Assembly (NCBI GenBank): GCA_038231295.1
Contig: JBBRLP010000009.1
Span: 1-64,000 of the forward strand
DNA length: 64,000 nt
DNA from: Chthonomonadales bacterium
Lineage (GTDB): Bacteria; Armatimonadota; Chthonomonadetes; Chthonomonadales; Chthonomonadaceae
Direction: 5' to 3'
Position 1 is the stretch's first letter. Each line of letters starts with the position of its first letter. Shown here in pieces: positions 4,951-22,047 of this stretch. The position numbers and the translations under genes were made by a program. The notes beneath the pieces are model-generated. The model saw nothing but the letters and a program-made list of their open reading frames with translations. It was not told the origin of the DNA and searched no databases.

Positions 4951-4998
4951 ATACGAAAAGGGCGCGTATCCGTCCCAGAAGTGAACAGATACGCGCCC
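4951..4998 (-). terminator. Rho-independent terminator after the 559-aa secreted protein gene
   Basis: Perfect 11-bp stem (gggcgcgtatc ... gatacgcgccc) with a 17-nt loop. On the minus strand it is followed directly by TTTTCGTAT, about 50 nt after the stop at 5045. Confidence 0.6.
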
Positions 4999-5044
4999 TT
5001 GATGTTGCCGCTTCCACCATGCGAAGCGAGGAAGAGAAACCAGA

Positions 5045-6875: not shown

Positions 6876-6891
6876 AGTGATCTTTTTCACA
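6876..6891 (-). promoter_or_regulatory. CRP/FNR-family-like binding site (TGTGA-N6-TCACT) upstream of the 559-aa secreted protein gene
   Basis: The minus strand reads TGTGAAAAAGATCACT, a 9/10 match to TGTGA-N6-TCACA. It lies ~160 bp upstream of the start codon at 6724. It is part of a 19-mer (caagtgatctttttcacac) identical to one upstream of pilB. It is embedded in a 12-bp perfect inverted repeat (6876-6887 / 6900-6911). Confidence 0.4.
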
Positions 6892-6916
6892 CTGCCTGAA
6901 AAAAGATCACTCGAAT

Positions 6917-9900
6917 TTAGGGAGTCGCTCTAAAAAAGACGGACGGCAAACCGTTCGCTCCCTCATGGAAAACACTCTTTTTCACCGGCAGCGACTGAAC
7001 TTCATTGGCTAAATCCAGCATGACAGGTTTCGCCCTGTCAATCAAGACCTTCATTTTCGCATCCATCAGATCATACAGGTGATCCACCGTGAGGTTTCCG
7101 CCGCCCGCCATTTCAGCCAGGCTGCTGATCAGCGCCTCGCCATAGAAAGTATGATGCAGTCCCAGTTTCGAGTCCGGACTGTAAGCATGTTGTTTTGCCT
7201 GACAGGACTTCAGTCCCACATAAGAGGCCGCGCTCGCAACGGGAGAGTTGGGTTCACTTGTATAGGCTCCATTGCGGCACATATCATAAAACGCGACGAT
7301 CTTCACGTTCGGGAATTCCAGTGCCACTCGGTTCGCCAAGGACTCTGCGATCAGGTTCTCCTTGTTGGACGCCATAAGCAGATAGTCGGCGGGCGCTCCT
7401 TTGCTTGGATCCTGTATCTCTCCATGTCCTGCCAGATATATGATGATATGCTTGGGGTTCTTGGTCCGAACATCTGCCATGAAATTATTGAACGCCTCTT
7501 CCAGACGATCCCGATCTATCAGATTGACTGTCTTAGCCGAATCCAGATGGAGGTTGTCGCTGGCTTCCACTCCACTGGACTTTCCGTACAGGGTGTAGAT
7601 ATTCCCTGCGGCATAATGGTATTTTTCGATCAGTGTCGTGGCAAGATCACGGCCTGTCTGAACGCCATAGGGAAGACTTTGAATTCCAGAGTTGGGGCCG
7701 TATTCATCTATGGCAGCGATGAATACCATCCCACCAGGATCAACCACATCGAATCGCTTTCGCTGCGGACTGACTTTCGTCTGTCCTTCTCCCTGTATCG
7801 CGGTGACCTGGAGGACGTATTCCCCTTCAGGCAGATCGGGTAAATAATATGTCGCCTTTGTGGCTTCGACACTGACTTGCTTCGTTTTAATCGTGATCAT
7901 TCCGGTACTGCTGTTCTGCAATACCGTGTATTCCGCCTGGGCTGCGTTTTCGACTGTGCAGATGGCAAAGTGATTCTTAATATCCGCTCGCTCAAAAGAC
8001 TGCTTGTCTATGTCAAACGCGAGTGCTTCTACCTTGATCTGGAAGCCCTGTGTTCTTAGCGTAATCTTATTTGACTTCAGGAGCGCCAGGGGTTGGCCAT
8101 TTTTCGTCAGGTCGGCTTCGACCGTGACCAGGGTCTCTTTCTGGTTTGGTTGAATCTTCAACTCGAAAACATACTTATTCGCACTCTGCTTCTGGGCCGT
8201 CAATATCACGTCGTTCTGTTTGACGACAGGAGTTACGGCACTGGTGATGGTTATCGTTTGATGATTATAATCATTTTCCTGCGGGAGGACGACGCTGCCG
8301 ATAGCGCTATGCCTCACAAGTTCTGCTTTCACACTATTTTCGAATTTGCCTGTGTCATTTAGCACCTCACTATCGCTCTGCACTTTGAACACAGCCAATC
8401 GTTTGCCGATTTCCTCTGCGCTGGAAATCCGCAGGGCCAGCTCTTTCTGATCCTCATCCCCCCAGACATCTTTGCTGCTCAACAGCGCGATCTGCTGATT
8501 CGCCAGGGAAACGCTTTTCGTTGTCTCTGCCAGTACCAGTTCATGGACACTGGTGCGTACCAGTTCACCCATTTTGTTCAGCTCCGCTTCTGTCAGGGGA
8601 GCCGTCCGTGGGTTCTTCGCTATCTGACGAATTTGATTATAGGCATTGCTGAATTTCGGGTCGGCAGGCAGCTTTGGCTCAAGTTCGCCGGAGGCAAGTG
8701 TCAGGGCCTTGCCCAGATCGAAGTTTGCAGTAATGGTTTGGTTATCGCTAAGCTGAATCTGTACCAGTGTCTGCCCCGCACCGGACTGCGCCCCGATGAG
8801 AGCCATCACCTGAACCGCACCTACTTCTCCTTTGATTGGCTGGATGCTCGCGATGGAGACCGGTTGGTTCCCTACAAGTACCTTTGTGACCTTTTGCTGG
8901 GCGTCCATACCCGTTACCTTCATAGAAACCAGAGCGAGACCCAGTCCCGGTGTGATTCCTTCACGCAAGGGCTGGCCCACAGCCAGACGCACCTTGATAC
9001 CGTCAGCGAGGCTAGCCAGGTTCTTCAGTGCGCTCTCCAATTGAGCGGTTTCACCCGCTCTCTTAGCCAGTTCGGCCAGTTTCCCGGTCACCTCAGCGAG
9101 GGCGAGGATCGCGGGCTTATTGTCCGGCAACTTATTAACCTGTTGCAGATAGACCTGGTTAAACTGGCGGGCGAAGTCCGCTTTTGCTTCATATTGAATG
9201 ATGGCGACCGCTTCGCTATCGCTTGCCTCTGCAAGCGGCTGATAGAAGGCCAGAGCGGTTCCGGCGGCGTTCAGGTAGCGTTCATCGTCACGGGTGGGTT
9301 CAAAAGCGTATTGAGCCAGTTCGCGGAGTTTTTCAGGCAGAGTTTTAATCAGCCCCTCTTGTTCCTGCGCCTTGAAGGTCAGCCTTTCGCTGCCGAAACT
9401 GACACGCTGCTCCTCTTTGCCCTGTAGAATTGCTACTGTTGGTTCGTTGCGCCCATCTCTGGGAACAGGCAGCAGATACAGACGTTCTGCATACCCGTCC
9501 GCTTCCGGGGACTTGGCGCTATAGGGCTGAATGTCGTAGGGGATACCGTTTACCCGAACGCCTGTCGGGGCCGTATAGTCGCTCACGCGCAGCACGGCCA
9601 GTCGAATACGGTCGTCCTTCGTATCCAGCCAGGCCAGTGAAGACAGACGTGTATTGAAGGCTATACTGACGGGTTGGCTGGTGGTCATCTCCGTCCCGTT
9701 GCGCTGTACGGAAGCACGAACTTGTGTGGTGTTGGCCCGCAGCACAACCCGTCCGACGACCATACTTGTCGTCTGTGCATCTGCGACCATCGGCAGAGGG
9801 TTCCCTGCCGCATCAAGGACAGTCAGGAAATTCCCGTCCTGATCGGCGACGACAACCTTGTCCTTCTCGACGAGATTATCCGCTGTGAAGCTTCCTGCGG

Positions 9901-11017
9901 AGAGGAGACGTCGATTCGGGAACAGTTGGTTGGTCGAAGCCAGCAGCGTCGGAACGCCCAGCACCCGAATATTTGCTGTGGCAACCGAAGTGCCAGCCGG
10001 AGCTTCCCCATTGTTTACCAGGCGATAGATGGCTTTAGCATCGTCGGAGGAAACTTCCTTAGCAGCAGAATAGTCCGCTATCTGAAACTCTACTTTAGCA
10101 GCCTTTTTGAGCGTCAGGTTCAGCTTAAAACGCCCCTGACCGGGTTCCGCAGTACCCGTAGCTACGACCGCCCCGTCAACTTTTGCTACTACTTTCACGG
10201 GTAACAGGCTGTTCAGGTCTCCCTGAATCTCTACCGTGTCGCCGTTGCCTCCCTGCTTGATGTTATCAATGCTCGGCCAGCCAAGCAGTGCTTTATAGCG
10301 TTGGTCAAGGTCCGCCGCCAGCGTTATAAACGAGGCTCCATTCATATCCAGCACATTCGTTGCGATACGCAATTTGGCTGGGTCCGCCTGCGCGCCTGCT
10401 TGAATTTTCTTTACATTGTCGAGGAGAGATTTAAAAAGAACGATACTGTCCGTCTGGGCCTGCTCATGGGTACTGATTTTGATCTGACTCGCCAGTCCGA
10501 TATCCACCAGATTACCGCGCAGGAGTTCCAGTTGGCAGACAAGCATCATTTTCCGATAAAACACAGAGCTATACGCTTGATTTAGTGGCTTTAAATCCTG
10601 TTCAGTTTTCGGCAGGTAGGATTTGCAGCGATTCAGAGAGGCGATTTTGTCGGCACCCGTTGAATAGTGAGCAGCCTCATAAAAGGCATAAGCAGTGATG
10701 AAGTTAGGACAATAGACACCTTTCCCATTCCCGCCTAATGAGCCACCCAGAGTCCAGTCCGATCTCTCTTTTTGTTCTGTGGTGCATTCTATAGCCGCCT
10801 CAGCCGCTTGCTTATAGGTTTTGACTGCCTCCGCCGCTTTTCCGCTCTCCACCTGGGCGCGTGCGTTATCGAGACGGCCAAGCACTTCGTTCTTCCATTT
10901 TTCCTGCAGATCCGCTCTGGCAGGAGCGGCAGAAGCCAGACTGACCGCGCATAGCGCGGTCAAAAAAAGGTACCAGAGCGGCGATATAGAACGCCTTGAT
11001 GGGAGATTTGAAGACAT
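6917..11017 (-). CDS. Large secreted protein with C-terminal clan-CD (caspase/CHAT-like) cysteine peptidase domain
   Basis: 1,366-aa ORF. RBS GGAGGTAGG upstream; signal peptide (LWYLFLTALCAVSLASAAPARA). The C-terminal ~250 aa show caspase-fold landmarks. These are VFIAAIDEYG, then HIIIYLAGHGE (His-Gly), then ~47 aa later KIVAFYDMCRNGA (catalytic Cys). This spacing is typical of clan CD peptidases. The N-terminal ~1,000 aa are helical/TPR-like and beta-sandwich-like with no confident family. Confidence 0.65.
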   Translation of the reverse strand: MSSNLPSRRSISPLWYLFLTALCAVSLASAAPARADLQEKWKNEVLGRLDNARAQVESGKAAEAVKTYKQAAEAAIECTTEQKERSDWTLGGSLGGNGKGVYCPNFITAYAFYEAAHYSTGADKIASLNRCKSYLPKTEQDLKPLNQAYSSVFYRKMMLVCQLELLRGNLVDIGLASQIKISTHEQAQTDSIVLFKSLLDNVKKIQAGAQADPAKLRIATNVLDMNGASFITLAADLDQRYKALLGWPSIDNIKQGGNGDTVEIQGDLNSLLPVKVVAKVDGAVVATGTAEPGQGRFKLNLTLKKAAKVEFQIADYSAAKEVSSDDAKAIYRLVNNGEAPAGTSVATANIRVLGVPTLLASTNQLFPNRRLLSAGSFTADNLVEKDKVVVADQDGNFLTVLDAAGNPLPMVADAQTTSMVVGRVVLRANTTQVRASVQRNGTEMTTSQPVSIAFNTRLSSLAWLDTKDDRIRLAVLRVSDYTAPTGVRVNGIPYDIQPYSAKSPEADGYAERLYLLPVPRDGRNEPTVAILQGKEEQRVSFGSERLTFKAQEQEGLIKTLPEKLRELAQYAFEPTRDDERYLNAAGTALAFYQPLAEASDSEAVAIIQYEAKADFARQFNQVYLQQVNKLPDNKPAILALAEVTGKLAELAKRAGETAQLESALKNLASLADGIKVRLAVGQPLREGITPGLGLALVSMKVTGMDAQQKVTKVLVGNQPVSIASIQPIKGEVGAVQVMALIGAQSGAGQTLVQIQLSDNQTITANFDLGKALTLASGELEPKLPADPKFSNAYNQIRQIAKNPRTAPLTEAELNKMGELVRTSVHELVLAETTKSVSLANQQIALLSSKDVWGDEDQKELALRISSAEEIGKRLAVFKVQSDSEVLNDTGKFENSVKAELVRHSAIGSVVLPQENDYNHQTITITSAVTPVVKQNDVILTAQKQSANKYVFELKIQPNQKETLVTVEADLTKNGQPLALLKSNKITLRTQGFQIKVEALAFDIDKQSFERADIKNHFAICTVENAAQAEYTVLQNSSTGMITIKTKQVSVEATKATYYLPDLPEGEYVLQVTAIQGEGQTKVSPQRKRFDVVDPGGMVFIAAIDEYGPNSGIQSLPYGVQTGRDLATTLIEKYHYAAGNIYTLYGKSSGVEASDNLHLDSAKTVNLIDRDRLEEAFNNFMADVRTKNPKHIIIYLAGHGEIQDPSKGAPADYLLMASNKENLIAESLANRVALEFPNVKIVAFYDMCRNGAYTSEPNSPVASAASYVGLKSCQAKQHAYSPDSKLGLHHTFYGEALISSLAEMAGGGNLTVDHLYDLMDAKMKVLIDRAKPVMLDLANEVQSLPVKKSVFHEGANGLPSVFFRATP

Positions 11018-11042
11018 ATTTCCTACCTCCTGCCCGGTTGGG

Positions 11043-11070
11043 CACTGCCTGAAATATACATCAGGCAGTG
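11043..11070. other. Intercistronic perfect hairpin between the outer-membrane-protein and protease genes
   Basis: cactgcctga (11043-11052) and tcaggcagtg (11061-11070) form a 10-bp perfect inverted repeat with an 8-nt AT loop. It sits ~30 bp upstream of the RBS of the 6917..11017 gene. It shares the 12-mer cactgcctgaaa with the hairpin at 6890-6904. Confidence 0.5.
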
Positions 11071-11092
11071 TTCACCCCTTCGGGATTACTCA

Positions 11093-12514
11093 CTAGAACG
11101 TAGCGCGTCCAGTCAGAGTATAAGTGAGACTCCCACTGGATGTTTGGAGTTCAACGGTCGGTTCGAAACTGTAGCGTACCCCTTTAGTGACTTTAGAAAC
11201 GCGTCCCGTTGGCTTATACGTCTTTGTCACCGGGTCGAATTTTCTTTCTTCGATACCGGAGTCATCCGGATCGTAAAGCTGCTGGAACGCCAGTCCGAAG
11301 GAAAAAACGCTGTCTGCATTGGTGTAGATGGTGGCAGCATTCTCGTTGGTATGAAAGCCGAACCGTACCGGGACACTGTAGCGATTCGCATGTTTTGTAT
11401 CCCAGAAAACCGGTACGCTTTTCGGCGTGTATTCAAAGCCTAGATGGAAGTTGGTGACGGCCCGCCGCCGATCCAACTGCGAACTAATGCCGTTTACCAA
11501 TTTACGATTGGCCGCTGAAAACACCTGTAGTTCGCCGCTGACAATGTATTGACCATGCAGTTTCGGCAGAATATAGGCCGTGCCGAACGTGAATCTTTCC
11601 GGCGTCTCCGTGTTGAATGTCGTCGGAGTGGTACTCGTGGCATCCAGGCCGGAAAGTGTTGTCGCAGAACGGTACGAGAGACCGAAGGACCACTTATCCG
11701 AGGGATCATAGGCCAGTCCGGCACTTACTCCTACCCCATGACCACGTGCGCTGATGGGCGTATCGTTAATGCTGACCGTTTGGCCTGGCGACACCTGTGT
11801 GCCGACGGTGGATTCGCTGAACTCCTGATCCACAAAGAATATGCCGATTCCTACTCCCAGCTGACCTGGCAGTTTTGCCTTTTTGGGCAGGAACCTTTTC
11901 ATTATACCCTCAAACTGTTTCTTATCGAACAGTTTTCCATAGGCTACGGTAAGGTAGGAGTTTCGCACCAGCAGGTCGGTCGTTCCTGTCTGTGTCACGG
12001 TAATATTGTTTCCTGCTATACCAGACCCATCTGGAACATCCGTTTTCGAGCGATTAAAACCTTCGCGCAGTTTCAGATACCCGCCAAGAGTATAACTGAC
12101 ACCGACAAATTGATGTTCCTTCTCTGCCCCGACCGGGAAGACAAGACTTGCAAAGCCGAGCTGCGGTTTTCCGGCGCGGTTTCCCGGTTTGAACACGTCC
12201 GGCGTATTGGTCTTCGTTGTGAGCGTGGCATCCGCTTCGAATACGGAGCGGTAGTCTATCATGAATTCACGGTTGCTGAGAAAGCCGAGGCGACCGGGAT
12301 TCCAGAACGTAGCGCTGGCGTCGTTGGCAATGGCAGAGAAGGCGTTCCCCATTGCAACGGATCGGGAACCAACGCCGAGTGTCTGGAGTTGGTCCGAGCC
12401 GAGACGACGACCATAAAGAGCGCTGATTCCCTGAGCGTGTGTTACAGACGAACACGCTGCCGTAACGAGAGCGAGACCAGTCCATGAGACACACCAGGAG
12501 CGAGAGTATTTCAT
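11093..12514 (-). CDS. Outer-membrane beta-barrel protein of the FadL/TodX/PorV-like family
   Basis: 473-aa ORF with a signal peptide (GLALVTAACSSVTHAQG). The N-terminal motif VAMGNAFSAIANDASATFWNPGRLGFL matches the G-x-G-x-A-F-x-A-x-A-D-D-A-S-A-x-F-x-N-P-A-G-L signature of the FadL/TodX/PorV families. The rest has alternating beta-strand-like composition with aromatic residues and a C-terminal F. RBS AAAGGAGA lies upstream. Confidence 0.6.
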   Translation of the reverse strand: MKYSRSWCVSWTGLALVTAACSSVTHAQGISALYGRRLGSDQLQTLGVGSRSVAMGNAFSAIANDASATFWNPGRLGFLSNREFMIDYRSVFEADATLTTKTNTPDVFKPGNRAGKPQLGFASLVFPVGAEKEHQFVGVSYTLGGYLKLREGFNRSKTDVPDGSGIAGNNITVTQTGTTDLLVRNSYLTVAYGKLFDKKQFEGIMKRFLPKKAKLPGQLGVGIGIFFVDQEFSESTVGTQVSPGQTVSINDTPISARGHGVGVSAGLAYDPSDKWSFGLSYRSATTLSGLDATSTTPTTFNTETPERFTFGTAYILPKLHGQYIVSGELQVFSAANRKLVNGISSQLDRRRAVTNFHLGFEYTPKSVPVFWDTKHANRYSVPVRFGFHTNENAATIYTNADSVFSFGLAFQQLYDPDDSGIEERKFDPVTKTYKPTGRVSKVTKGVRYSFEPTVELQTSSGSLTYTLTGRATF

Positions 12515-12555
12515 TTAGCGCGATATCTCCTTTTCACCATCTAGCGGGGTTCGGT

Positions 12556-12585
12556 GGAGAGCATAGCCCGTGGGCTATGCTCTCC
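12556..12585. other. Intercistronic perfect hairpin between the adhesin and outer-membrane-protein genes
   Basis: ggagagcatagccc / gggctatgctctcc form a 13-14-bp perfect stem with a 3-nt loop, right after the adhesin stop and ~40 nt before the OMP RBS. No U-run follows. It looks more like an attenuator or processing/stability stem than a terminator. Confidence 0.5.
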
Positions 12586-12601
12586 CCTCTCCACTCCTGT
12601 T

Positions 12602-15600
12602 TTAGTTCACGTTCACGTTGAAGTACGCCGATTTTTTTTGTCCCGCGTTGCCTACGACATCTTGCAGGCCAATGTCCGTAGGCTTAGGAACCAGCGGCAC
12701 TGAGGCTACCGGCAGAATTACTGTGCCGTTCGCATTTCGTCCCAGGCTGACGATATCGATGCGGTATTGGCTTCCCAACTTGAATAGTGACGGCTGGATG
12801 GGAATCTGCCAGTTTACTAGGTAACTGCCTTTCTGATCGAGCGATGAAGTAGCGGCTCCATTCGCGCTTTGCGTGTTTGGCTTCTGAATGGCATCCAGCA
12901 AATTCCAGTAGACAGCTTGAGGAATGATGACTTCCTTGTTAGTCGCTACTTCATAGATGCGAATGGTGGCTGCCGGAGCGGAAACACCTTTCATTATGCT
13001 CAGCAGTGGCGACACGGTGGCGTTAGTATCTCTGGTGCTAGTTGGTTTGGTATTATCCAGACGGAATGTGATGTTCAGAGTTCCACCTGGGCTAACCAGA
13101 TACTTCTGTCCTGGATCTGTCGCGAATGGCGACAGTATGGCTACGGAAGGTGGAGTGTTATCCAGTACCGCATCCAGAACCGACGTTGCTGTCAGAATAG
13201 AGATTGGCCCATCTAGTTTTTGAACCTGCTGAATGGCGCTGAGAGTGATCGTATGCAACCCTTCTCCATTGGTGTCCTTCGTGAAACCAAATTTATCGAG
13301 TTGACTTCCCGTGAGGGGCGCGCTGTAGGTATCTCCCAGGCTATCGGAGTAGTTGATTTGAGTAGCCTTATCCACTTCCACTCCTATCGCAGCCGTTGTA
13401 CCACGCAGATACACTGCCTGGCGATTAAGCGAGGATTGACTCAGCTTCGGAGATGACAATACGGAAACCGTAGGCAGATTATTGCCATCGCCATCGAAGA
13501 TCACCGGTGAGGACAGTGAGAGTATAGATATCGGCAGTCCATTCACCGGGTCAAGGACTTGCACATGAACTGTAATGGACACGTTAGTCACATTACCGGC
13601 CATATCCTTCGCCTGGGCATCGATGATGTAGTCTCCATTGGAAACAGCCCCCCACATGAACCGCTTTAGCCCAGGAGTAGTAACATCATCCAGTGGCGTT
13701 GGCTGCGTCTTCGCACCCCGAATCGTAACGGTAAGACTCAGTTTGTTCTGAGGATCGGATATGTTGTCTCCCAGGTTGATGTCTATCCGGTAGGGACTCG
13801 TGATATTCTGACCATCTCGCAGATTGTTGAACTGAATCGTGGGGGGAGTACGGTCCACGAAAACGGTTCGCGAGATGAAGCCTCTGTTCAGGGCAACGTC
13901 CGCCGACTGCACGGTGAGAGTATGCTTGCCCTCTGTGACATTGGGCGACGACACATCCCAGGATACACTGTTCAGCGCAGGCAGAGCCACGTTCGGATAT
14001 TTGTCGCCGTCTATCAGAATGCTCGTTGTGAGCGGGTTCGACTGGAGATGAATGTTATCATCAATGGCCACCGTAACCTGATACTTCCCTGCCTTCAGGA
14101 AGGCCCCATCGGCAGGCGACATGAAGTTGAAGGTCGGTGCGGAGTTGTCTATGACGATATTTGCCGGGCCGGCGTTCAGCGGGAAAGTCGCGCCGCCCTT
14201 GTCGGTCGCAATCACTTCCACCGTATAGGGGCCTTCGCCAACCGTACCCGGAACGATGTCGAAGGGTTTATGCACGTTGAGCTTCGTAGAGTTTACGATG
14301 GGCTGCAGTGGCTTGTTGTCTATGGTCATGTCTTCCGTGTCGGTATAGAAGACAACGCCATTACTATCCTTGACATTGATTGTGTAACTTTGCAGGCTAG
14401 GCACGTTGACGGTACCGATGATATCCACAGGTTTGGGGCCAGCGACTATCTTCCCATCCACAGAGTACTGATCCGCGTGAATATAGAAATACCCACCGCT
14501 CTGTCGTGCGTTCCCGTCAATGTCTATGAAGTTGTCTAACGTGACCGTCTGTCCACTTGCGCTTATGGCCGTAACAGGATCGCTTATCCCTGTGTTGGCC
14601 GGAGTCGTCGTATCGTTCGAGACAATACGAATTTCCAGCGTCGTACCGGGGGCAATCCGCGTTCCATCCTGGAACAGCGCAGGGAAGGGCGTGGTATAGG
14701 TTGCGGTCTTGCCACCATTCACCACCAGGGTTCCCGGTACGATGATGGAGGCATTTGCTGGCAGAGTCGGCACCACACCAGCCGGGCTGCCAGCCCAGAG
14801 TGGCGTAGGCAGCGAGAAGATGAACGAAGCGGATCCGCCCAGATGGACATCGGAAACGCTGCCTATCACTGGTGTTGTTACCGGAACCTGAGTCCCACTG
14901 GAAGGCGACGAGATCAGCGTAGCAGGAGGAGTGTGGTCAACGATGAAATTCAGCGTTGACGTATTCGCCATGGAGACCGTATTGACGTTTCCAGACTTAT
15001 CTGTAACGGTTAGGGTGATGCTATGCTGCCCATCTACCAGCGCCGCTGTGTCAAGCCCCATAATGGTGAACGTACCCGTTCCCCCTGCGGGAGCCACAGG
15101 CGTAATGGTAACCGCAGGAGACACCGCTCCATCCACAGAGACCGTGAACAGTTTGGGGTCAAACTGCGTCGCATTCGCCATAGTGTACGTGCCGGTGAAT
15201 TGAAGCACATCACGGACAACCTGAATGACACTCGCGGTTCCGGCCGGGTTAGGCGTCCCGATGGTGTAGTCCGTAGGAGTAGGAGAGGCAGGCGTTGCTA
15301 TTGCACTGTTCGCAACGCGCTGGGCCGTCTTGAGAGTAATGGTCGGGGGAGTATTGCCGACCGTAACGGTGATCGAAGCGGAATCGGTATTACCCGCCTG
15401 GTCTGTCGCCTGAATTTTCAGAGTATGCAGGCCGTCTGCCAGTTTGGTCGTGTCCCAGTTGTCGTAGGCGACCAGACCGGTTCCCGTGTTGTCGGTAACC
15501 AGAGGCATCGCCGTGCCACTATCCGTCAGGACGTAGGTCTTGAGGTGAAGGTCGGCGATGGAACCGCGAATCTTCGGTGTACCGCGCACGAACGCGCCGT

Positions 15601-18600
15601 CAGAAGGAGAGGTGAAGGTCACGACAGGCTTGGTATTGTCCACAACGAAAGTACGGACTTCCGTCTGGCCTTTGTTGCCTGCCTTGTCCACCGCCGTGAT
15701 CTGTATCTGGTGAGCGCCTTCCTTTAGGTATGCAGCGCCTGCGCCCGGTACCAGAGTTATGGCTCCCGCCACCATCACTGTCTTCTGGGAGGCACCGTCC
15801 ACCAGGATGTCCGCATGGTCGAGGTTGGTCTCCGTGATCGTGCCGTCAATCGTGACGAGCGTCCCTCCCTGGTTCTGAACAACCGAACCGTCCGAGGGCG
15901 CCATCGGGCCGAACTTTACCACCGGGGCGGTATTGTCCACAGTGATGGTGCGGATGGCGGTCTGGCCCATGTTTCCGGCCTTGTCACTGGCTGTGATCTG
16001 AAGGGTATGCGCCCCTTCGGCGAGATAAGCAGCGGCAGCACCGGGAGTGAAGGTCAACGCGCCGGGCATGGCTCCCATCTTTCGGGAAATGCCATCCACT
16101 AGAATGTCCCACTGCTTCAGGTTGATCTCGGTAATGTTGCCATCAATCGTTACCAGATTGGTTCCCTGGTTCTGGACGAATGCGCCGTCCGTTGGGGTCA
16201 AGGCTCCAAAGGTGACGGCGGGATTGATGTTGTCCACGATAATGGTACGCACTGCCGTTGCCGCATGGTTACCGGCCTTGTCGAAGGCTTCGATCTGAAT
16301 GGTGTGCGGCCCATCGGCGAGATAGGCTCCCGCCATACTTGCCGCCGCTCCCGGCTGGAAGGTGATCGGGCCAGCCGTCATACCGGTCTGGCGGGTAACT
16401 CCGTCTACCAAGATGTTCCAGTGATCGAGGTTGATCTCGGTCACCGTGCCATCAATGGTAATCAGGGTGCTTGCCTGGTTCTGGACAAACGCGACATCCG
16501 AAGGCGTCATCGCACCGAAGGTGACAATCGGATCGGTGTTGTCTATGATGATCTGGCGCGTGACCGAAACGTCCGCTTTAGAGATGTCGGCAGCGGTCAG
16601 TGTAGCCGGGTTGGCAGTGTTGGTAACCGCGAGGGTCAGGGTATAGGTTCCGTCCGGGGTACTCCCCGCCTTGGTGTCGAAGGGATCGGTCGGAGCCTTG
16701 TTCAGTTTGCTCGTCTGAGGCAACTGCGTCGCCGCAGGGGTCGGGCCGTCGCCGCCAAGTTGAATCGGCCCAACGGTCGCATTGCCCAGTAGCAGCAGCC
16801 ACTGTTTCGGATTCAGGATACCGACTTTACCGAAGACCGTGATGTCTCTTCCGACAAAGACAGCGGATAATCCCAGACCATCGGAGATGCCCGTTCCTTT
16901 GTAGTCGTGGAAGTCAATCTCGTCGAGGGTGACTGCCGACTTGATAACGAAGACCGTGACTACCGCGCTCGTGACGATATGCGGTGGGTTCACCAAGTCT
17001 CTGCCCGTTAGGGTGATGTCTACACTGCTGCCCGCCGTCGCGGTATCGAAGCCGCCGATGATGGCGGGAATGGCGGTAGAAGCCACACCGCCGGTCGGAA
17101 CGACATCCACCGTTGTGGAGGCCGTCGTCGCGCCGTTGTGATAGGTGAAGGTGAAGGTCGCCTTGGACAGATCGAGGTTCGCACCGGAGATGAAGCCGAC
17201 GGTTGTGCTTCCTACAGGAACCGTCGCGCCGTTGGTCGGAGAAGAGACGACGACGACCGGGCCGGTGTTCTGGATGGTGATGGTGCGGATGGCGGTCTGG
17301 GCTTTGTTACCGGCTTTGTCCTCCGCAGTGATCTGTATGGTATGCTGCCCGTCTACCAGATAGGCCACGCCTGCACCCGGAGTGAAACTGATCGCTCCCG
17401 TGGTCATGCCGGTCTTGCGGGAGACGCCGTCAATCAGGATGTCCCACTGTTTCAGATTAGTCTCGGTAACGGTACCGTCAATCGTGAGCAGATTGCCAGC
17501 CTCGTTGCGGACGATAGCGCCGTCGGAGGGGGTCATCGCGCCGAACGTCACTACCGGAGCCGTGTTGTCCACCGTGATGGTTCGGACAGCCGTCTGACCG
17601 GCGTTCCCCGCCTTGTCGGTCGCCTTTATCTGGAGCGTGTGGGAGCCATCCATCAGGTAGGCTGCCCCTGCGCCCGGAACGAGGCTAATCGCGCCGTTGG
17701 TCATGCCGGATTTGCGGGACGTGCCATCAATCAGGATGTCCCACTGGTTCAGGTTCTGCTCGGTCACATTGCCGTCAATGGTGATGAGGCTGCCCGCCTG
17801 GTTCTGCACGAACGCGCCGTCCGAGGGAGTAAGCGGGCCATACGTGACGACCGGAGCGATGTTATCCACGACGAAGGTTCGTACTGCCGTCGCCGCATGG
17901 TTGCCGGACTTGTCGAAGGCTTCGAGTTGGACGGTATGCGGGCCATCACAGAGATAGGAACCGGCCATGCTCGCCGCCGCGCCGGGCTGGAAGGTGATCG
18001 CGCCAGTGGTCGTGCCGGTCTGGCGGGCAACGCCGTCAATCAGGAAATTCCAGTGGTCGAGGTTGGCCTCGGTCACCGTACCATCCAGAGTGATCAGGCT
18101 GCCGGTCTGGTTCTGCACGAACGCCATATCCGAAGGCGTCATCGCTCCGAAGGCGACGACCGGGTCGGTATTGTCTATGATGATCTGGCGCGTGACGGAG
18201 ACATCGGCCTTCGAGAGGTCGGTGACGGTCAGGGTATTCGGGTTGGCAAGGTTCGTGACCGCGAGGGTCAGGGTATAGGTTCCGTCCGGGGTATTCCCCG
18301 CCTTCGAGTCGAAGGGGTCGGTCGGAGCCTTGTTCAGTTTGCTCGTCACCGCGAGTTCGGCGGCAGGCGGGGTCGGGCCATCGCCACCGATCTGGAGGGG
18401 AGTCGGGATCGCCGCGCCGCTGAGAACCAGCAGCCACTGTTTCGGGTTGAGAATACCGACTTTGCCGAAGACGGTGAGGTCCCGTCCGACAAAGACGGCG
18501 GACGCTCCGAGCGGATCGGAGATCGCCGTTCCCGCAAAGTCGTGGAACAGGATGCTGTCGAGCGTGACCGCCGACTTGATGACGAAGACCGTCACGATGC

Positions 18601-21388
18601 CACTGGTCACCACATGAGGAGGTGTCGCCAGGTCCGCGCCCGTCAGGGTGATGTCTACGCTGCTGCCCGGCGTCGCGGTATCGAAGCCGCCGATGATGGC
18701 GGGAATAGCGGTAGAGGCTACGCCGCCCGTCGGAACGACATCCACGGTTGTGGACGCAGTACTCGCGCCGTTGTGATACGTGAAGGTGAAGGTCGCTTTG
18801 CTGAGGTCAACGTTGTTGCCCGAAACGACACCGGTGACGGTGGTGCCAGCCGGGACCGTCGCGCCGCTCACAGGAGACGTGACCGTCACAGTCGGAGCGG
18901 TGTTCTGAACAATCGCCGTAAGGGTGGTCCCGACATCGGTCGGCTTGTTGGTATTGCCCGCCTTGTCCGTTACCACGATGGAGAGCGTATGCGCTCCGTC
19001 GCTGGCTGTCGTCGTGTCCCAGGTCGCAGAGAAGGTTCCCACGCCCGCAGAAGGCGTGTCGAGCGTGACCGTAGTTGCCAGAGGCTTGCCGTCCACCGTC
19101 ACCGTCAGATTGGCGGCGGCGAGGTTCTTCTCGGTGTAGGTGCCGCTGAGGGTCACGGTATCGCGGATGATCTGAACAATCGAGGTCGCGTTCACCGTGT
19201 AGGTCGGGCCGCCTGTCCGCATCGCCGCCTTGTAGGCCGCCAGCGGAGCCGTCTTGTCTACAGTCACGTCTACCGTCTTATCGGTGGCCGTGTTGCCTGC
19301 CGCGTCGGTCGCCTTCACCGTCAGGGTGTGCATCCCTTCGGAAGCGCTGGAGGTATCCCAGACACCGGAGAAGGTCAGCGGGAACGGAGGCGTTCCCTTC
19401 CCGGAAGCAATCAGCGTCGCGCCATCGAAGATACTGTAGGCGATGACGTTTTTCGGATCGGTGTTCGGGGCGTCCGTAATCGTCCCGGAGATCGCCACTT
19501 TGGAGGAGGGAAGGAACGCGCCTGCAAGCGGCGTGTCAATGGTCGAGATAACCGGCGCAGTATTGTCCACAATGACCTGGAGGGTCGTGGTGGCGATGTT
19601 GCCCGCCTGGTCCTTAACCGTCGCCGTCAGTGTGTGGGTGCCGTCCGGCACGATACCCTTGGTATCGTATTTCCCCGTGACTGTCTGAATTCCCGCCACG
19701 GTGTTGGGGAAGTTCATGTTGGAGAAGACGCTATTGTTCAGTTCGTCCTTGATTTCGATGTCGAGAATGTTCGTCGCATCCACGACGCTGGCGGAGAACT
19801 GAAGGGTAACGTCTGTCTTACCGCTGATGATCGCATTCGCCGAAGGCGCGGTGATCGCAGCCGTCGGGAGTATATTCTCCACGAAGACGGTGACACTTGC
19901 GGAGTTGATCGTATTCGCCTGCGCGTCCGTCACCTTGACATAGATCGAGTGCTTGCCATCCGCCGCTTTGGTCGTGTCCCAGGTGGCGGTCAGGCCCGCG
20001 CCGTGTCCCGATCCGGCCTTCACCAGCGTATCCACACCGCCGTTCACGTCGTGGAGTTCGTAGTTCAGGTCGCCGCCTACCGTCATGTTGGCGTTGGCGT
20101 CAAATGTAACGGTCGCCGTGCCTTTAAGGTAGGTGTTGGTGGAGGGGGCCGTGATCGTGACCGTCGGCAGGTTCTTCTGGTCAATGTTGATGGAGAATGG
20201 CGTCGCCACAAAGTCGGGAGCGCCGCCGACAGCCATCGCATCGTAGGTCTGGTTGCCCGCATAGTCGCTGATGACCGCGTAGACTTTGTAGGCTCCCGGC
20301 AAGAGGCCGGTCGTATCGTAGTCCACCGACCAGTTTACATCGTCGGCGGGATTGGCGCCGTAGGTGAGTTTGGCGGGAATGCGCTTGAGGGTGCTGCCTG
20401 CGCCCATCCCATCGTCGGGGGACTGCACATAGAGTTCGACGCTGGCGATACCACCAGGCGCGAGAGCGGCTCCGGTTCCGTTGTTGGGGTCGTTGACTTT
20501 GCCCTTGAAGCGGACGATGCCGGGAGTGGGATAAGAGACGTTTCCGGCGCTGTTGAGGCTGCCGCTTGCGCTGATAGCGGGCGGGGTATAGTCTATGACG
20601 ATGCTTCGCTGAAAGACGGCGGCAGGCGCGGCCGTACCGTCGTCCACCGTAACGGTCATCAGGCCGTCAATCAGTCCGCTGGCGGTACCGACTGCATAGG
20701 AAAAGGGCAGGACTTTGCTGTTGTCTTTGTTCCCATTGGGGTCGTCGTTGTTGAGCCGCAGCGCCCCGTTAAGATCGAAGGTGATGGGCGTGGAAGTCGT
20801 CTCGGCGAAACGCACCTTTCCCAGAGCGCCTCCAGCATTGTTATAACGCAGTCGCACACCAAGGGTGTACTTGTCGTTAGCCTTCTTGCCCATTCCGGCG
20901 AAGACACTGGAGTGAACGCCGCTCGGCACAAAAATGAGGCCCATATTGGGAAGCGTCACACCATCCAGATGCACAGCGACATTCTGCGTAGAGCCTGCCT
21001 GTCCATTGAGGAAAGGCGTCGCGAAGATAGTGAAGTCACCGTCCGTAGCGCCACCGAAAAGCCAGTTATACTCCCAGACGCCGCCTTTAACGACCGCGAA
21101 GGTATCCGTCCCGACCGTTACTCCGGCTTTTTCGATGTGAATGAGAACGCGGTCGGCATTATGACAGATACCATTGATAGTGTAGTGAGCAGAGATACCT
21201 GCCCCTTCCGCCGTTGCATCTACCGACGTCCCTGATGTGATTCGCTCGGTGGGACGGGGGTTTACCACATAGAGCGATTGCGCCTGCCCCGCCTGCGCCA
21301 GCGTCAGCGCGAAGAGAAGGGTGAGAGGAATAAATGCGTGAGCCATGCTGCGCCAGCAGGCTCTTATTACGCTTCGACCTATAGCCAT
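12602..21388 (-). CDS. Giant secreted adhesin-like protein with tandem bacterial Ig-like (Big/cadherin-like) domains
   Basis: 2,928-aa ORF with RBS AAGGAGA before the ATG at 21388. A long positively charged N-region plus hydrophobic core forms an extended signal peptide. At least 9 copies of a ~100-aa repeat occur (..VDNTAPVVTFGAMTPSDGA.V.NQ.G.L.TIDG.VTE.NL..WDILIDG.SRK.G....ISF.PGA...YL.DG.HT.QI.A.DKAGN..QTA.RTI.). A larger ~540-aa segment is internally duplicated. The composition is Thr/Gly/Val/Asp-rich and Cys-poor. Confidence 0.85.
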   Translation of the reverse strand: MAIGRSVIRACWRSMAHAFIPLTLLFALTLAQAGQAQSLYVVNPRPTERITSGTSVDATAEGAGISAHYTINGICHNADRVLIHIEKAGVTVGTDTFAVVKGGVWEYNWLFGGATDGDFTIFATPFLNGQAGSTQNVAVHLDGVTLPNMGLIFVPSGVHSSVFAGMGKKANDKYTLGVRLRYNNAGGALGKVRFAETTSTPITFDLNGALRLNNDDPNGNKDNSKVLPFSYAVGTASGLIDGLMTVTVDDGTAAPAAVFQRSIVIDYTPPAISASGSLNSAGNVSYPTPGIVRFKGKVNDPNNGTGAALAPGGIASVELYVQSPDDGMGAGSTLKRIPAKLTYGANPADDVNWSVDYDTTGLLPGAYKVYAVISDYAGNQTYDAMAVGGAPDFVATPFSINIDQKNLPTVTITAPSTNTYLKGTATVTFDANANMTVGGDLNYELHDVNGGVDTLVKAGSGHGAGLTATWDTTKAADGKHSIYVKVTDAQANTINSASVTVFVENILPTAAITAPSANAIISGKTDVTLQFSASVVDATNILDIEIKDELNNSVFSNMNFPNTVAGIQTVTGKYDTKGIVPDGTHTLTATVKDQAGNIATTTLQVIVDNTAPVISTIDTPLAGAFLPSSKVAISGTITDAPNTDPKNVIAYSIFDGATLIASGKGTPPFPLTFSGVWDTSSASEGMHTLTVKATDAAGNTATDKTVDVTVDKTAPLAAYKAAMRTGGPTYTVNATSIVQIIRDTVTLSGTYTEKNLAAANLTVTVDGKPLATTVTLDTPSAGVGTFSATWDTTTASDGAHTLSIVVTDKAGNTNKPTDVGTTLTAIVQNTAPTVTVTSPVSGATVPAGTTVTGVVSGNNVDLSKATFTFTYHNGASTASTTVDVVPTGGVASTAIPAIIGGFDTATPGSSVDITLTGADLATPPHVVTSGIVTVFVIKSAVTLDSILFHDFAGTAISDPLGASAVFVGRDLTVFGKVGILNPKQWLLVLSGAAIPTPLQIGGDGPTPPAAELAVTSKLNKAPTDPFDSKAGNTPDGTYTLTLAVTNLANPNTLTVTDLSKADVSVTRQIIIDNTDPVVAFGAMTPSDMAFVQNQTGSLITLDGTVTEANLDHWNFLIDGVARQTGTTTGAITFQPGAAASMAGSYLCDGPHTVQLEAFDKSGNHAATAVRTFVVDNIAPVVTYGPLTPSDGAFVQNQAGSLITIDGNVTEQNLNQWDILIDGTSRKSGMTNGAISLVPGAGAAYLMDGSHTLQIKATDKAGNAGQTAVRTITVDNTAPVVTFGAMTPSDGAIVRNEAGNLLTIDGTVTETNLKQWDILIDGVSRKTGMTTGAISFTPGAGVAYLVDGQHTIQITAEDKAGNKAQTAIRTITIQNTGPVVVVSSPTNGATVPVGSTTVGFISGANLDLSKATFTFTYHNGATTASTTVDVVPTGGVASTAIPAIIGGFDTATAGSSVDITLTGRDLVNPPHIVTSAVVTVFVIKSAVTLDEIDFHDYKGTGISDGLGLSAVFVGRDITVFGKVGILNPKQWLLLLGNATVGPIQLGGDGPTPAATQLPQTSKLNKAPTDPFDTKAGSTPDGTYTLTLAVTNTANPATLTAADISKADVSVTRQIIIDNTDPIVTFGAMTPSDVAFVQNQASTLITIDGTVTEINLDHWNILVDGVTRQTGMTAGPITFQPGAAASMAGAYLADGPHTIQIEAFDKAGNHAATAVRTIIVDNINPAVTFGALTPTDGAFVQNQGTNLVTIDGNITEINLKQWDILVDGISRKMGAMPGALTFTPGAAAAYLAEGAHTLQITASDKAGNMGQTAIRTITVDNTAPVVKFGPMAPSDGSVVQNQGGTLVTIDGTITETNLDHADILVDGASQKTVMVAGAITLVPGAGAAYLKEGAHQIQITAVDKAGNKGQTEVRTFVVDNTKPVVTFTSPSDGAFVRGTPKIRGSIADLHLKTYVLTDSGTAMPLVTDNTGTGLVAYDNWDTTKLADGLHTLKIQATDQAGNTDSASITVTVGNTPPTITLKTAQRVANSAIATPASPTPTDYTIGTPNPAGTASVIQVVRDVLQFTGTYTMANATQFDPKLFTVSVDGAVSPAVTITPVAPAGGTGTFTIMGLDTAALVDGQHSITLTVTDKSGNVNTVSMANTSTLNFIVDHTPPATLISSPSSGTQVPVTTPVIGSVSDVHLGGSASFIFSLPTPLWAGSPAGVVPTLPANASIIVPGTLVVNGGKTATYTTPFPALFQDGTRIAPGTTLEIRIVSNDTTTPANTGISDPVTAISASGQTVTLDNFIDIDGNARQSGGYFYIHADQYSVDGKIVAGPKPVDIIGTVNVPSLQSYTINVKDSNGVVFYTDTEDMTIDNKPLQPIVNSTKLNVHKPFDIVPGTVGEGPYTVEVIATDKGGATFPLNAGPANIVIDNSAPTFNFMSPADGAFLKAGKYQVTVAIDDNIHLQSNPLTTSILIDGDKYPNVALPALNSVSWDVSSPNVTEGKHTLTVQSADVALNRGFISRTVFVDRTPPTIQFNNLRDGQNITSPYRIDINLGDNISDPQNKLSLTVTIRGAKTQPTPLDDVTTPGLKRFMWGAVSNGDYIIDAQAKDMAGNVTNVSITVHVQVLDPVNGLPISILSLSSPVIFDGDGNNLPTVSVLSSPKLSQSSLNRQAVYLRGTTAAIGVEVDKATQINYSDSLGDTYSAPLTGSQLDKFGFTKDTNGEGLHTITLSAIQQVQKLDGPISILTATSVLDAVLDNTPPSVAILSPFATDPGQKYLVSPGGTLNITFRLDNTKPTSTRDTNATVSPLLSIMKGVSAPAATIRIYEVATNKEVIIPQAVYWNLLDAIQKPNTQSANGAATSSLDQKGSYLVNWQIPIQPSLFKLGSQYRIDIVSLGRNANGTVILPVASVPLVPKPTDIGLQDVVGNAGQKKSAYFNVNVN
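15650..18915. repeat. Approximately 1.63-kb tandem duplication (two units) inside the adhesin gene
   Basis: A ~730-bp segment at ~16550-17285 is repeated at ~18175-18915 with high nucleotide identity. Each copy is followed by three ~300-bp Ig-domain repeats. The antisense shadow ORFs 16578..16802 and 18036..18437 encode near-identical peptides (DEQTEQGSDR.LR..GGEYPGRNLYPDPRG), confirming the duplication. Boundaries are approximate. Confidence 0.7.
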
Positions 21389-21721: not shown

Positions 21722-22047
21722 ATCCTGTCATGCAGGCGAGCCACTAAAACATATCATAACGACGGCCTGCCTGTCAAGTGCTTTGGTGAGGAATCATGCT
21801 TTTTTTCAAAATTCGTGATTTCTTCCCTGAAGTTCGGACTTCAAGTCGTCATATCACCTTCCTGTAAATCAATTCGTTAAGAACGTCTTTGCTATTTCAT
21901 TTCGCATACCATCTCCGCAGTGCGCCTTCGTGTTAATAGGATGCGTCCCGGATTTGTCCAAAATCATGCCTCGCAGAGAGACTATGCTACAATAACCAGG
22001 TTACTCGCGCACACTCTGTCCCGGCGCACCGAGGTGAGGAGATTTTC

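Follow-up and report, generated by a model that had tools for sequence, protein, structure and literature searches.

A conserved cassette of a giant Ig-repeat protein, a FadL-fold barrel and a C14 peptidase in Chthonomonadales, resembling a module for surface-protein display

LapA is a giant adhesin and T1SS/RTX substrate that is held in a TolC-like outer-membrane pore (LapE) and released by LapG, a periplasmic cysteine protease with a transglutaminase-like fold. In the Fap amyloid system, the plugged 12-strand barrel FapF and the C39-like cysteine protease FapD have been proposed to play the pore and the trimming role, respectively. None of these proteins is presumably homologous to those of the cassette described here. 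Type IX secretion (T9SS), which is described as a system of the phylum Bacteroidetes, provides a precedent for cargo anchoring by a cognate barrel, the product of a neighbouring gene, and a TPR protein, as in PorE-PorP-PG1035 and SprB-SprF (PMC9143113). Barrels of the FadL fold have long been viewed as channels for lipids and aromatic compounds only. Recently, PorV and BamG have shown such barrels to be protein-binding parts of outer-membrane machines, in Bacteroidota only; BamG is a FadL-fold subunit of the Bacteroidota BAM complex that binds protein via its extracellular loops (PMC12578637).

Here we analyse a gene cassette of Chthonomonadales (Armatimonadota), a small and poorly studied lineage, and infer the function of the cassette throughout. 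The original prediction for this locus was a giant Ig-repeat adhesin followed by a PorU/PorV-like pair, i.e., a PorV-like barrel and a secreted protease of the caspase type. The data examined were the window (the whole 64-kb stretch of DNA analysed) and flanks of up to 10 kb around the loci of relatives. No description of such an adhesin-barrel-caspase cassette was found in the literature.

Layout of the gene unit

Three ORFs follow each other on the minus strand, at 12602-21388 (2,928 aa), 11093-12514 (473 aa) and 6917-11017 (1,366 aa). The predicted co-directional series of Ig-repeat protein, barrel and secreted protein is confirmed, with exactly the ORF coordinates predicted. The unit extends to a fourth gene, 5045-6724, which encodes a TPR protein, and all four cassette proteins begin with signal-peptide-like sequences. 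The features of the unit are, in the direction of transcription:

21748..21777, minus strand: promoter-like site, the best one 5' of the adhesin gene; TTGACA, 18-nt spacer, TGnTATGTT; 10 of 12 consensus positions, extended -10 TG
12602..21388, minus strand: giant Ig-repeat protein of 2,928 aa, putatively at the surface; Sec signal peptide, N-terminal module, Ig repeats, C-terminal domain
12605..13165, minus strand: C-terminal domain of the adhesin, residues 2742-2928, ending in ...Y.I.I....DVVGN.......YFNVNVN; defined by an HMM of 7 orthologues
12554..12585, minus strand: intercistronic hairpin 1, directly 3' of the adhesin stop codon; 14-bp perfect stem, ACGG loop, without U-run; dG -37.9, z -4.5
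11093..12514, minus strand: outer-membrane barrel of 473 aa; signal peptide, N-terminal FadL/PorV-type hatch (LQTLGVGSRSVAMGNAFSAIANDASATFWNPGRLG), 14 strands, C-terminal ...TGRATF
11043..11070, minus strand: intercistronic hairpin 2, 3' of the barrel stop codon; 10-bp perfect stem, then a GGAGG Shine-Dalgarno sequence; dG -29.2, z -3.5
6917..11017, minus strand: secreted protein of 1,366 aa; signal peptide, ~1,040 aa of helical and Ig-like modules, then an Ig-like and a C14 domain
6920..7843, minus strand: Peptidase_C14 (clan CD) domain, residues ~1059-1366; His1198 codon at 7424-7426, Cys1247 codon at 7277-7279
6848-6876, minus strand: promoter-like site of the TPR gene's own, upstream of the 5045-6724 gene
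5045..6724, minus strand: secreted protein of 559 aa; family-specific domain and C-terminal TPR repeats (Pfam TPR_19, 1.7e-8)
4958..5000, minus strand: intrinsic terminator closing the unit, 45 nt past the stop codon of the 5045-6724 gene; 18-bp stem, then a T-rich tail

The gaps between the first three genes, which had been described as structured and of ~75-85 bp, measure 87 and 75 bp and contain one strong hairpin each, and for either gap 0 of 200 shuffles fold equally well. A comparable hairpin lies 3' of the big gene in 7/7 loci examined, and similar hairpins are present 3' of the barrel gene in four loci (L001, L003, L004 and L005). The promoter-like site of the adhesin gene precedes the ATG at 21388 by ~360 nt; such sites are in total no commoner here than chance predicts, so that only its position makes this one a candidate promoter. 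Elsewhere, the window carries a type IV pilus/T2SS-like gene set.

The four proteins and their co-inheritance

The adhesin matches the Pfam Ig-domain families Big_13 (7.6e-67), Big_3_3 (8.4e-44) and Big_7 (5.4e-17), and many repeats of these types make up its middle, including a segmental duplication of 555 aa. Its N-terminal module of ~380 aa, at residues 37-420, is family-specific and shares 37% identity with that of the L001 orthologue (E 5e-72). Across loci, the big proteins are orthologous over their first 380 aa and their last 150-450 aa, with total lengths from ~1,200 to 2,928 aa. The HMM of the C-terminal domain, in which a 26-aa insertion is specific to the window copy, matches each locus exactly once, at the very C-terminal end of the protein encoded directly upstream of the barrel, and has no further match elsewhere in the 64-kb window; in four loci left out of its building the matches reach E values of 1e-21 to 5e-28. 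Among 1.84 billion representatives only 11 matches to the domain were obtained (E≤1e-3), versus 24 barrel clusters, with a single-sequence query that could miss more distant carriers. Being rare and present about once per barrel, the domain is not a general sorting tag. Of the conserved C-terminal domain envisaged for the adhesin and for other secreted proteins, the first part is thus supported by the HMM of 7 orthologues, whereas sharing by many cargoes is not found. Neither a type A (Por_Secre_tail, PF18962/TIGR04183) nor a type B (TIGR04131) C-terminal domain (CTD) of T9SS is detected on the adhesin in Pfam and NCBIfam at E≤1; as positive control, a Poribacteria protein (L042) matches PF18962 with 37 bits. 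A PorU match on the adhesin (NCBIfam, 60.5 bits versus a cut-off of 420) was dismissed as non-specific, arising via a shared Ig-type domain.

The 473-aa protein is a barrel of the FadL/PorV fold with 14 strands and a conserved N-terminal hatch or plug motif (NPA-type, NP(G/A)), so that the FadL/TodX/PorV signature read from the sequence is upheld in both fold and motif. This hatch shows high conservation and, in the model, sits inside the barrel. With Pfam Toluene_X (PF03349) the barrel scores 27.4 bits (E 1.5e-6) against a gathering threshold of 29.7, and PF03349 is precomputed for 4/23 barrel homologues and for the NCBI-annotated form of the window barrel (P0002). With the NCBIfam PorV/PorQ family (PorV_fam, NF033709) it scores 44.7 bits versus a cut-off of 90, its best stretch comprising residues 45-95 only, and with the PorV equivalog (NF033710) 14.9 versus 250 bits; control barrels from the same scan pass the PorV family with 208.8 (L013) and 108.6 bits (L042). 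In Pfam and NCBIfam no match to the PorP/SprF family was obtained at E≤1, and NCBIfam gives no BamG match for the window barrel. A FilD match (NCBIfam, 18.3 versus 970 bits) was dismissed as non-specific. The FadL fold includes barrels that bind proteins via extracellular loops (PorV, 6h3i; BamG, 9n2d/9hj3).

The 1,366-aa protein, which only matches itself in a full-length word-index search, is homologous to the proteins encoded downstream of the barrel in other loci; its helical and Ig-like part of ~1,040 aa is without database match. Through its orthologues, the C-terminal domain belongs by sequence to Peptidase_C14, clan CD. Pfam PF00656 is matched by 6/7 members of the C14 alignment (best 5.8e-16) and is precomputed in L005, L167, L168 and L169; the window domain is homologous to PF00656-matching orthologues with BLAST E values of 1e-15 to 1e-7, and itself reaches no Pfam threshold, with no PF00656 match even at E≤10. 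A word-index search with the 7-sequence alignment returned one protein. Against the PDB, the family profile finds the metacaspase MCA2 (3e-4) and MALT1 (1e-3) and, weakly, GPI transamidase (E 0.6). The AF2 model of the window domain, made from a 2-sequence alignment, is of low confidence (pLDDT 48); its strand/helix order fits the caspase-haemoglobinase fold, and the top 14 Foldseek matches of this low-confidence model are all clan CD (caspases or legumains, E 1e-4 to 6e-3), with legumain and the ligase OaAEP1 among the fold matches. The dyad maps to His1198 (HIIIYLAGHG, from residue 1190) and Cys1247 (FYDMCRNG, from residue 1243). All 7 aligned sequences have GHG and C-R, as do 3 further orthologues, and this conservation in 10/10 proteins argues that the enzyme is probably active. 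The caspase-like His-Gly...Cys dyad of clan CD that had been read from the sequence is accordingly retained, with the family assigned via the orthologues. The PorU-like size of the protease is not a conserved property, as the orthologues range from 728 to ~1,490 aa. No match to C25 or PorU (NF033707) was obtained for the 1,366-aa protein in Pfam and NCBIfam at E≤1, and NCBIfam gives no match at E≤0.001 for the orthologues of L003 and L005.

The TPR protein is homologous over its full length to a copy in L001 (E 8e-38) and to two paralogues in L004, and with an HMM of its last 230 aa a copy is detected 3' of the C14 gene in L001, L003, L004, L006, L009, L168 and L169. A PDB profile search with its N-terminal half found nothing. 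A degenerate caspase fold in this half was considered and set aside, hhalign against the C14 alignment covering only beta1-alpha1-beta2 with a probability of 5.7%.

All 12 other loci that encode a barrel orthologue have, directly 5' of the barrel gene, the gene of a big Ig protein with the family-specific C-terminal domain and, where the contig reaches far enough, a C14 gene 3' of it, which is usually followed by the TPR gene. These loci represent ~11 distinct lineages with barrels 29-45% identical to that of the window, and the recurrence of one gene order at such identities is beyond chance. Three HMMs made with sequences of the first 7 loci, one each for the C-terminal domain, the C14 domain and the TPR module, pick up their targets in the 4 loci found later. 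Beside ~150 other PorV-motif barrels the C14 HMM has no match, so the pairing of barrel and C14 protein is specific to this barrel family. Only 3 of 185,579 species-representative genomes encode a full-length barrel orthologue, and all three carry the cassette; a metagenome scan with the barrel alignment was swamped by the PorV-type hatch motif and yielded one short extra orthologue (L087). Co-inheritance of adhesin, barrel and protease is therefore tight and specific, as the predicted linkage implied; the barrel is linked to adhesins, the dyad is conserved, and the low-confidence model of the C14 domain fits a clan-CD fold. A gene cluster for an extracellular contractile injection system (eCIS) begins right after the cassette in two loci, L006 and L167, and is absent from the window and most loci.

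A possible envelope module and competing readings

The reading that we favour, tentatively and at somewhat less than even odds (about 0.45), is that the cassette is a lineage-specific, dedicated envelope module made up of four proteins exported via Sec, with the barrel holding a fibre that the protease processes. The giant Ig-repeat protein would be the structural product, a surface fibre or adhesin, whose conserved end domains would have system-specific roles while the middle would grow and shrink by repeat duplication. The FadL-fold barrel would be the private outer-membrane partner of this fibre, holding one conserved end at the surface non-covalently, most likely the C-terminal domain, and possibly serving also as the route across the outer membrane. 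This idea of anchoring draws on analogy, since the FadL-fold PorV binds T9SS cargo CTDs likewise and PorP/SprF, of a different barrel family, anchors adjacently encoded cargo with a type B CTD. The C14 protease, with its His/Cys dyad intact and conserved, would cleave the fibre for maturation or release; both barrel and protease would thus contact the fibre. The TPR protein may act as a periplasmic scaffold or chaperone, and the hairpins after the first and second genes may grade expression in the order fibre > barrel > protease. The path of the 300-kDa fibre across the outer membrane is left unexplained by the envelope-module reading.

It is also conceivable, if rather unlikely, that the cassette is a two-partner-like secretion system in which the FadL-fold barrel is the translocation pore; its hatch would move out, the unfolded Ig protein would thread through and fold outside, and the C14 enzyme would trim or free it. 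The dedicated, one-to-one pairing of cargo and barrel fits such a system, and so do the Sec dependence of the cargo and the lack of any other conserved outer-membrane component in the loci. However, the hatch is highly conserved and modelled inside the barrel, POTRA-like or TPS-like recognition domains are absent, the type IV pilus/T2SS-like genes of the window offer an alternative export route, and we know of no FadL-family barrel that conducts a polypeptide.

The sorting mechanism of T9SS, as first proposed for this locus, would have the barrel shuttle cargo like PorV and the C14 enzyme act as a sortase-like transpeptidase that cuts off the C-terminal domain and joins the fibre by a covalent bond to an anchor of lipid or glycan; such an attachment step is pure speculation. 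Clan CD does contain transpeptidases, of which GPI transamidase is weakly touched by the profile and legumain/OaAEP1 are among the fold matches. Moreover, the best profile match of the barrel is the PorV/PorQ hatch region, the cargo has a conserved C-terminal domain, and in Poribacteria a giant Big_13 protein with a Por_Secre_tail is encoded directly upstream of a PorV-family barrel. Nevertheless, barrel and protease are not a pair of PorV and PorU homologues: the former stays below both the PorV/PorQ and the PorV equivalog cut-offs, the latter is C14 and not C25, with no NF033707 match on the window copy or those of L003 and L005, and no member of the C14 family is, to our knowledge, a transpeptidase. 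The adhesin has neither a Por_Secre_tail nor a type B CTD, its own C-terminal domain occurs about once per barrel, and the genes are arranged as cargo, barrel and protease, not as porU followed by porV. T9SS core genes (SprA/Sov, PorK/L/M/N) are also missing among the 27 larger ORFs of the 64-kb window in Pfam. This makes T9SS-like sorting improbable. There is likewise only a slim chance of a T9SS-independent display pathway in Chthonomonadales in which the FadL-fold barrel would be both translocator and anchor of one fibre and the C14 enzyme would remove the C-terminal domain and fix the fibre to the surface. If true, this would be a new secretion/attachment system with the first transpeptidase role for a C14 peptidase, which would fill the role of sortase-like clan-CD enzymes (e.g., PorU and GPI transamidase).

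That the barrel is an ordinary FadL-type channel for hydrophobic small molecules, with its position between adhesin and protease genes lacking mechanistic meaning, is very unlikely. A canonical hatch with the NP(G/A) motif and a Toluene_X score just under threshold, together with the Toluene_X record of several homologues, would be expected of such a channel, but the same two partner genes flank the barrel in 12/12 other loci with barrel identities of 29-45%, only genomes with these partners carry the family (all 3 genomes that encode a full-length orthologue among 185,579 species representatives), and none of the loci shows a link to genes of fatty-acid, hydrocarbon or aromatic catabolism. 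Bacterial caspase-like proteases act in abortive-infection systems and an eCIS cluster follows two of the cassettes, but a defence, cell-death or contractile-injection role with an incidental adhesin is rejected as highly improbable because the C14, barrel and TPR proteins have no PADLOC match and all four proteins carry signal peptides for export, the eCIS neighbourhood being absent from the window and most loci.

In all, the cassette looks like a so far undescribed mode of surface-protein display and processing. It would carry the principle of FadL-fold barrels with protein partners over into a distant phylum and connect it with another peptidase family of clan CD. Substrates are known for few bacterial caspase homologues; the fibre represents a concrete extracytoplasmic candidate. 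The cassette is present in an assembly of Chthonomonas calidirosea, a species with a cultured type strain, which makes surface proteomics and biochemistry feasible.

Comparison with known systems

The favoured envelope-module reading has several counterparts among described systems. LapA/LapG/LapE and FapF/FapD follow a similar logic, in which a giant repeat adhesin or a fibre is teamed with a barrel of the outer membrane and with its own exported cysteine protease for maturation or release. Unlike the FadL/TodX/TbuX channels (Toluene_X), the cassette barrel lies just below the Pfam threshold, is always flanked by fibre and protease genes, is larger (473 aa) with family-specific insertions, and is without catabolic genes. 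BamG (PMC12578637) differs in its phylum and in that no BamA or BamH genes are present near the cassette.

In the T9SS branch formed by type B CTDs, PorP/SprF and PorE (PMC9143113), as in the window and 12/12 other loci, the cargo gene adjoins its own barrel gene; both arrangements have one barrel per cargo and a TPR partner, which is periplasmic in T9SS, and a giant adhesin is a possible cargo (SprB). Type B cargo is anchored non-covalently via its C-terminal domain, and the same is proposed for the cassette fibre. In contrast, the cassette barrel is of the FadL fold and outside the PorP/SprF family, its C14 protease is an extra component, and its TPR protein is without the beta-propeller and OmpA-like domains of PorE. 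T9SS export also needs the SprA translocon, and SprA is not seen in the window.

The likeness to PorU-PorV (with PorQ-PorZ) comprises a FadL-fold barrel of 14 strands whose N-terminal hatch motif is of the same type, a secreted cysteine peptidase of clan CD, and a Sec-dependent cargo that bears a conserved C-terminal domain, with large Ig-repeat proteins among the cargoes. The two differ in that the cassette barrel is below the PorV/PorQ cut-offs, the peptidase belongs to C14 instead of C25, the C-terminal domain has no relation to type A/B CTDs and is present on one protein per locus, the gene order is another, none of the T9SS core genes is seen in the window, and the host belongs to Armatimonadota. 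By analogy, the cassette thus appears similar in logic to type IX secretion of Bacteroidota and not a member of it.

Gene layout and linkage across loci

The three co-directional reading frames of the original prediction, encoding an adhesin, a barrel and a secreted protein, are confirmed; they lie on the minus strand and belong to a cassette with a fourth gene, which encodes a TPR protein:

21748-21777, best promoter-like site, upstream of the adhesin gene
12602-21388, minus strand, adhesin gene, 2,928 aa
11093-12514, minus strand, barrel gene, 473 aa
6917-11017, minus strand, secreted protease gene, 1,366 aa
5045-6724, minus strand, TPR gene, 559 aa, secreted product, TPR repeats at the C-terminus
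4958-5000, strong terminator after the TPR gene

The intergenic gaps, predicted to be structured, measure 87 and 75 bp and contain one perfect hairpin each, with a 14-bp stem between the adhesin and barrel genes (dG -37.9, z -4.5) and a 10-bp stem between the barrel and protease genes (dG -29.2, z -3.5; both z against shuffled sequence). A hairpin lies directly 3' of the first gene in all seven loci examined and 3' of the second gene in most, with sequences that vary among these loci and are not conserved. These hairpins would set graded expression inside one transcription unit. The G+C content is 51-55% over positions 6001-14000, from the TPR-proximal end through the C14 protease and barrel genes into the 3' part of the adhesin gene, versus 60-64% in the flanks. 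Horizontal acquisition is one possible cause, an unusual amino-acid composition another. A plus-strand open frame antisense to the adhesin gene (17138-21235, 1,365 aa) is putatively no gene but a sequence by-product, since all of it overlaps adhesin sequence that encodes repeats and is rich in G+C.

The linkage of these genes across loci is the strongest result of the analysis. Twelve further loci encode a barrel orthologue, with 29-45% identity; the named ones come from Chthonomonadales or Chthonomonas calidirosea. In all 12 the gene immediately upstream encodes a large Ig-repeat protein (about 1,200 to 2,491 aa where complete), and the gene immediately downstream, in every contig that reaches so far, encodes a C14 protein (728 to about 1,490 aa), so that the proposed co-occurrence of the barrel-protease pair with a large adhesin holds, contig permitting. 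With the first seven loci as the source of the HMMs, four later-fetched loci yielded matches for the barrel, the adhesin C-terminal domain, the C14 domain and the fourth component, which provides an out-of-sample check. The C14 HMM had no match next to about 150 further barrels that have the hatch motif and come from many phyla. The cassette is limited to a small lineage: only 3 of 185,579 species-representative genomes contain a full-length barrel orthologue, all three being Chthonomonadales and all three having the cassette.

Several loci differ in their surroundings. In the two divergent loci L006 (16070-21263) and L167 (15468-21515) the cassette is followed immediately, in the same orientation, by an extracellular contractile injection system (eCIS) cluster (Pvc16_N, sheath, gp19 tube protein, DUF6760 and eCIS_core); L005 has Tail_P2_I and DUF4159 genes nearby, and the window has no eCIS cluster. 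Three lineages have, along with the cassette, a gene for a homologous GerE/LuxR-type protein of ~535 aa (L003 15953-17569, L009 15986-17626, L168 852-2453). In two of them this gene separates the C14 gene from the TPR gene; in the other it lies upstream of the gene for the big protein. The GerE/LuxR-type protein may be a local regulator; BLAST found no homologue among the window's ORFs. The window also contains a minus-strand type IV pilus/T2SS-like cluster (29494-58533), which includes:

56758-58533, minus strand, PilB-like ATPase with MshEN domain
54962-56371, minus strand, second T2SSE ATPase
53696-54940, minus strand, T2SSF
52525-53619, minus strand, prepilin peptidase

These are followed by two unusually large proteins (661 and 745 aa) with an N-terminal methylation motif and, downstream of these pilin-like genes, by three giant proteins of 1,049, 1,692 and 2,771 aa, none with any Pfam match, and then a PpiC rotamase.

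The cassette products

The adhesin is full of bacterial Ig-like domains (Pfam Big_13 7.6e-67, Big_3_3 8.4e-44, Big_7 5.4e-17) and contains a 555-aa segmental duplication with 74% identity. Across loci the big proteins have in common an orthologous N-terminal module of ~380 aa, starting right after the signal peptide (..VVNP..), and a conserved C-terminal domain, which ends Y.I.I....D(V/I)(V/I/L)GN.......F.V.(V/L). The HMM of this C-terminal domain matches each locus once, invariably at the very end of the protein whose gene precedes the barrel gene, and has no second match in the window. The domain is not widespread among other proteins, with 11 matches among 1.84 billion representatives. The window copy (12605-13165) has a 26-aa insertion, LGRNANGTVILPVASVPLVPKPTDIG, just ahead of the DVVGN motif, which is missing in all six other aligned orthologues.

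The AF2 model of the barrel (23-homologue alignment; pLDDT 84.5, pTM 0.81) is plugged and has ~14 long strands, and the predicted FadL/PorV-type fold is thus right. The sequence profiles are borderline: the barrel scores 27.4 bits against Pfam Toluene_X (cut-off 29.7) and 44.7 against NCBIfam PorV/PorQ (cut-off 90), the latter match being confined to the N-terminal hatch (residues 45-95). A specifically PorV-like identity did not survive; true PorV/PorQ-family barrels from the same motif scan reach 208.8 and 108.6 bits. Across the 23 homologues the hatch motif, LQTLGVGSRS.AMGNA.SAIADDASATFWNP(G/A)RLG, hardly varies, and the proteins end in an aromatic residue. A hatch as such is non-discriminating. 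An N-terminal segment also sits within the barrel of FadL and of BamG (PMC12578637), and the match of the PorV/PorQ profile to this barrel falls exactly on the motif. The public NCBI protein (419 aa) starts at Met55, within the motif; homologue conservation and the 473-aa Logan copy (P0038) place the true start at the ATG at 12514.

The third protein contains both motifs noted for it, HIIIYLAGHG (His1198) and FYDMCRNG (Cys1247). It is an orphan in a word-index search, and its C-terminal domain alone has no Pfam match. The proteins downstream of the barrel orthologues are homologous to it over the last ~300 aa (BLAST E 1e-15 to 1e-7), and of the seven that were aligned, six hit Pfam Peptidase_C14 (best 5.8e-16). 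Every aligned sequence has G-H-G and C-R, as do three later-found orthologues. Against the PDB, the family profile finds metacaspase MCA2 (3e-4), MALT1 (1e-3) and metacaspases 4 and 9. The model predicted from a two-sequence alignment is of low confidence (pLDDT 48); within that limit the succession of strands and helices agrees with a caspase fold, and the best 14 Foldseek matches are all clan CD. Judged by its orthologues, the domain is a clan-CD peptidase of the caspase family (C14) whose dyad is intact; of the proposed PorU-like protease, the clan stands and the C25/PorU type does not.

The 559-aa protein has full-length homologues in L001 and L004, encoded next after the C14 gene, and its C-terminal module (~230 aa) matches same-position genes in L003, L006, L009, L168 and L169. 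Its N-terminal half (residues about 40-330, beginning GWvIIlGAn....) may be a degenerate caspase-like domain, with weak profile-profile support (probability 5.7%). Paralogues in L004 have SSHAG ... VLDCS where a caspase fold would place His and Cys; the window protein has Tyr and Gly there.

Proposed mechanism and alternatives

Taken together, the barrel may be the outer-membrane partner of the fibre, with the C14 enzyme cleaving the fibre and the TPR protein acting as scaffold (probability about 0.45). All four products would leave via Sec. The barrel, as private partner of the fibre, would hold one conserved fibre end at the surface, most likely the C-terminal domain, and may also aid its membrane crossing. 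The C14 enzyme would cut the fibre, leading to maturation or release, and the TPR protein would be a periplasmic assembly scaffold.

That the barrel, modelled as plugged, is itself the translocation pore is unlikely. Sortase-like covalent attachment of the fibre, which would assign the clan-CD peptidase a PorU-like task, is quite unlikely; the enzyme belongs to C14. An ordinary FadL channel mechanistically unlinked to its neighbours would fit the fold, and is very improbable beside the conserved gene linkage. A defence or contractile-injection role is hardly credible, as no PADLOC match supports it.

Literature searches found no description of such a cassette, and source annotations name its proteins only 'hypothetical protein' or 'caspase family protein'. 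The proposed arrangement is cargo-specific outer-membrane anchoring joined with a dedicated exported cysteine protease, a function that we infer in its entirety.

Comparison with type IX secretion

The parallel drawn with the PorU/PorV machinery of the Bacteroidota type IX secretion system (T9SS) holds in its logic, and membership fails on every defining feature testable. Common to both are the FadL fold of the barrel, a peptidase of clan CD, and a cargo that is exported by Sec, rich in Ig domains and equipped with a conserved C-terminal domain. However, the cassette barrel falls below the PorV/PorQ cut-offs, the peptidase is C14 and thus of the wrong family, the adhesin lacks a type A or type B CTD, its C-terminal domain (11 matches in 1.84 billion) is not common to many proteins, and the gene order is unlike that of T9SS. 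No T9SS core genes occur within the 64-kb window.

In two Candidatus Poribacteria loci (L042 2-8524, L047 3963-10855) the gene immediately upstream of a barrel gene encodes a giant Big_13/Big_3_3 protein that ends in a Por_Secre_tail (sizes from 1,930 to at least 2,506 aa); the L042 barrel, at 108.6 bits, exceeds the PorV/PorQ family cut-off. These pairs, with the barrel scored in L042 alone, resemble combinations of T9SS-type cargo or PorU-like genes and PorV-type barrels, beyond the Bacteroidota.

For the Chthonomonadales cassette, the closer analogue inside T9SS is the type B route, in which cargo such as SprB is held non-covalently by an adjacent-encoded cognate barrel, PorP/SprF, and the TPR protein PorE (PMC9143113). 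Binding of proteins by FadL-fold barrels through their loops is documented for PorV and BamG (PMC12578637).
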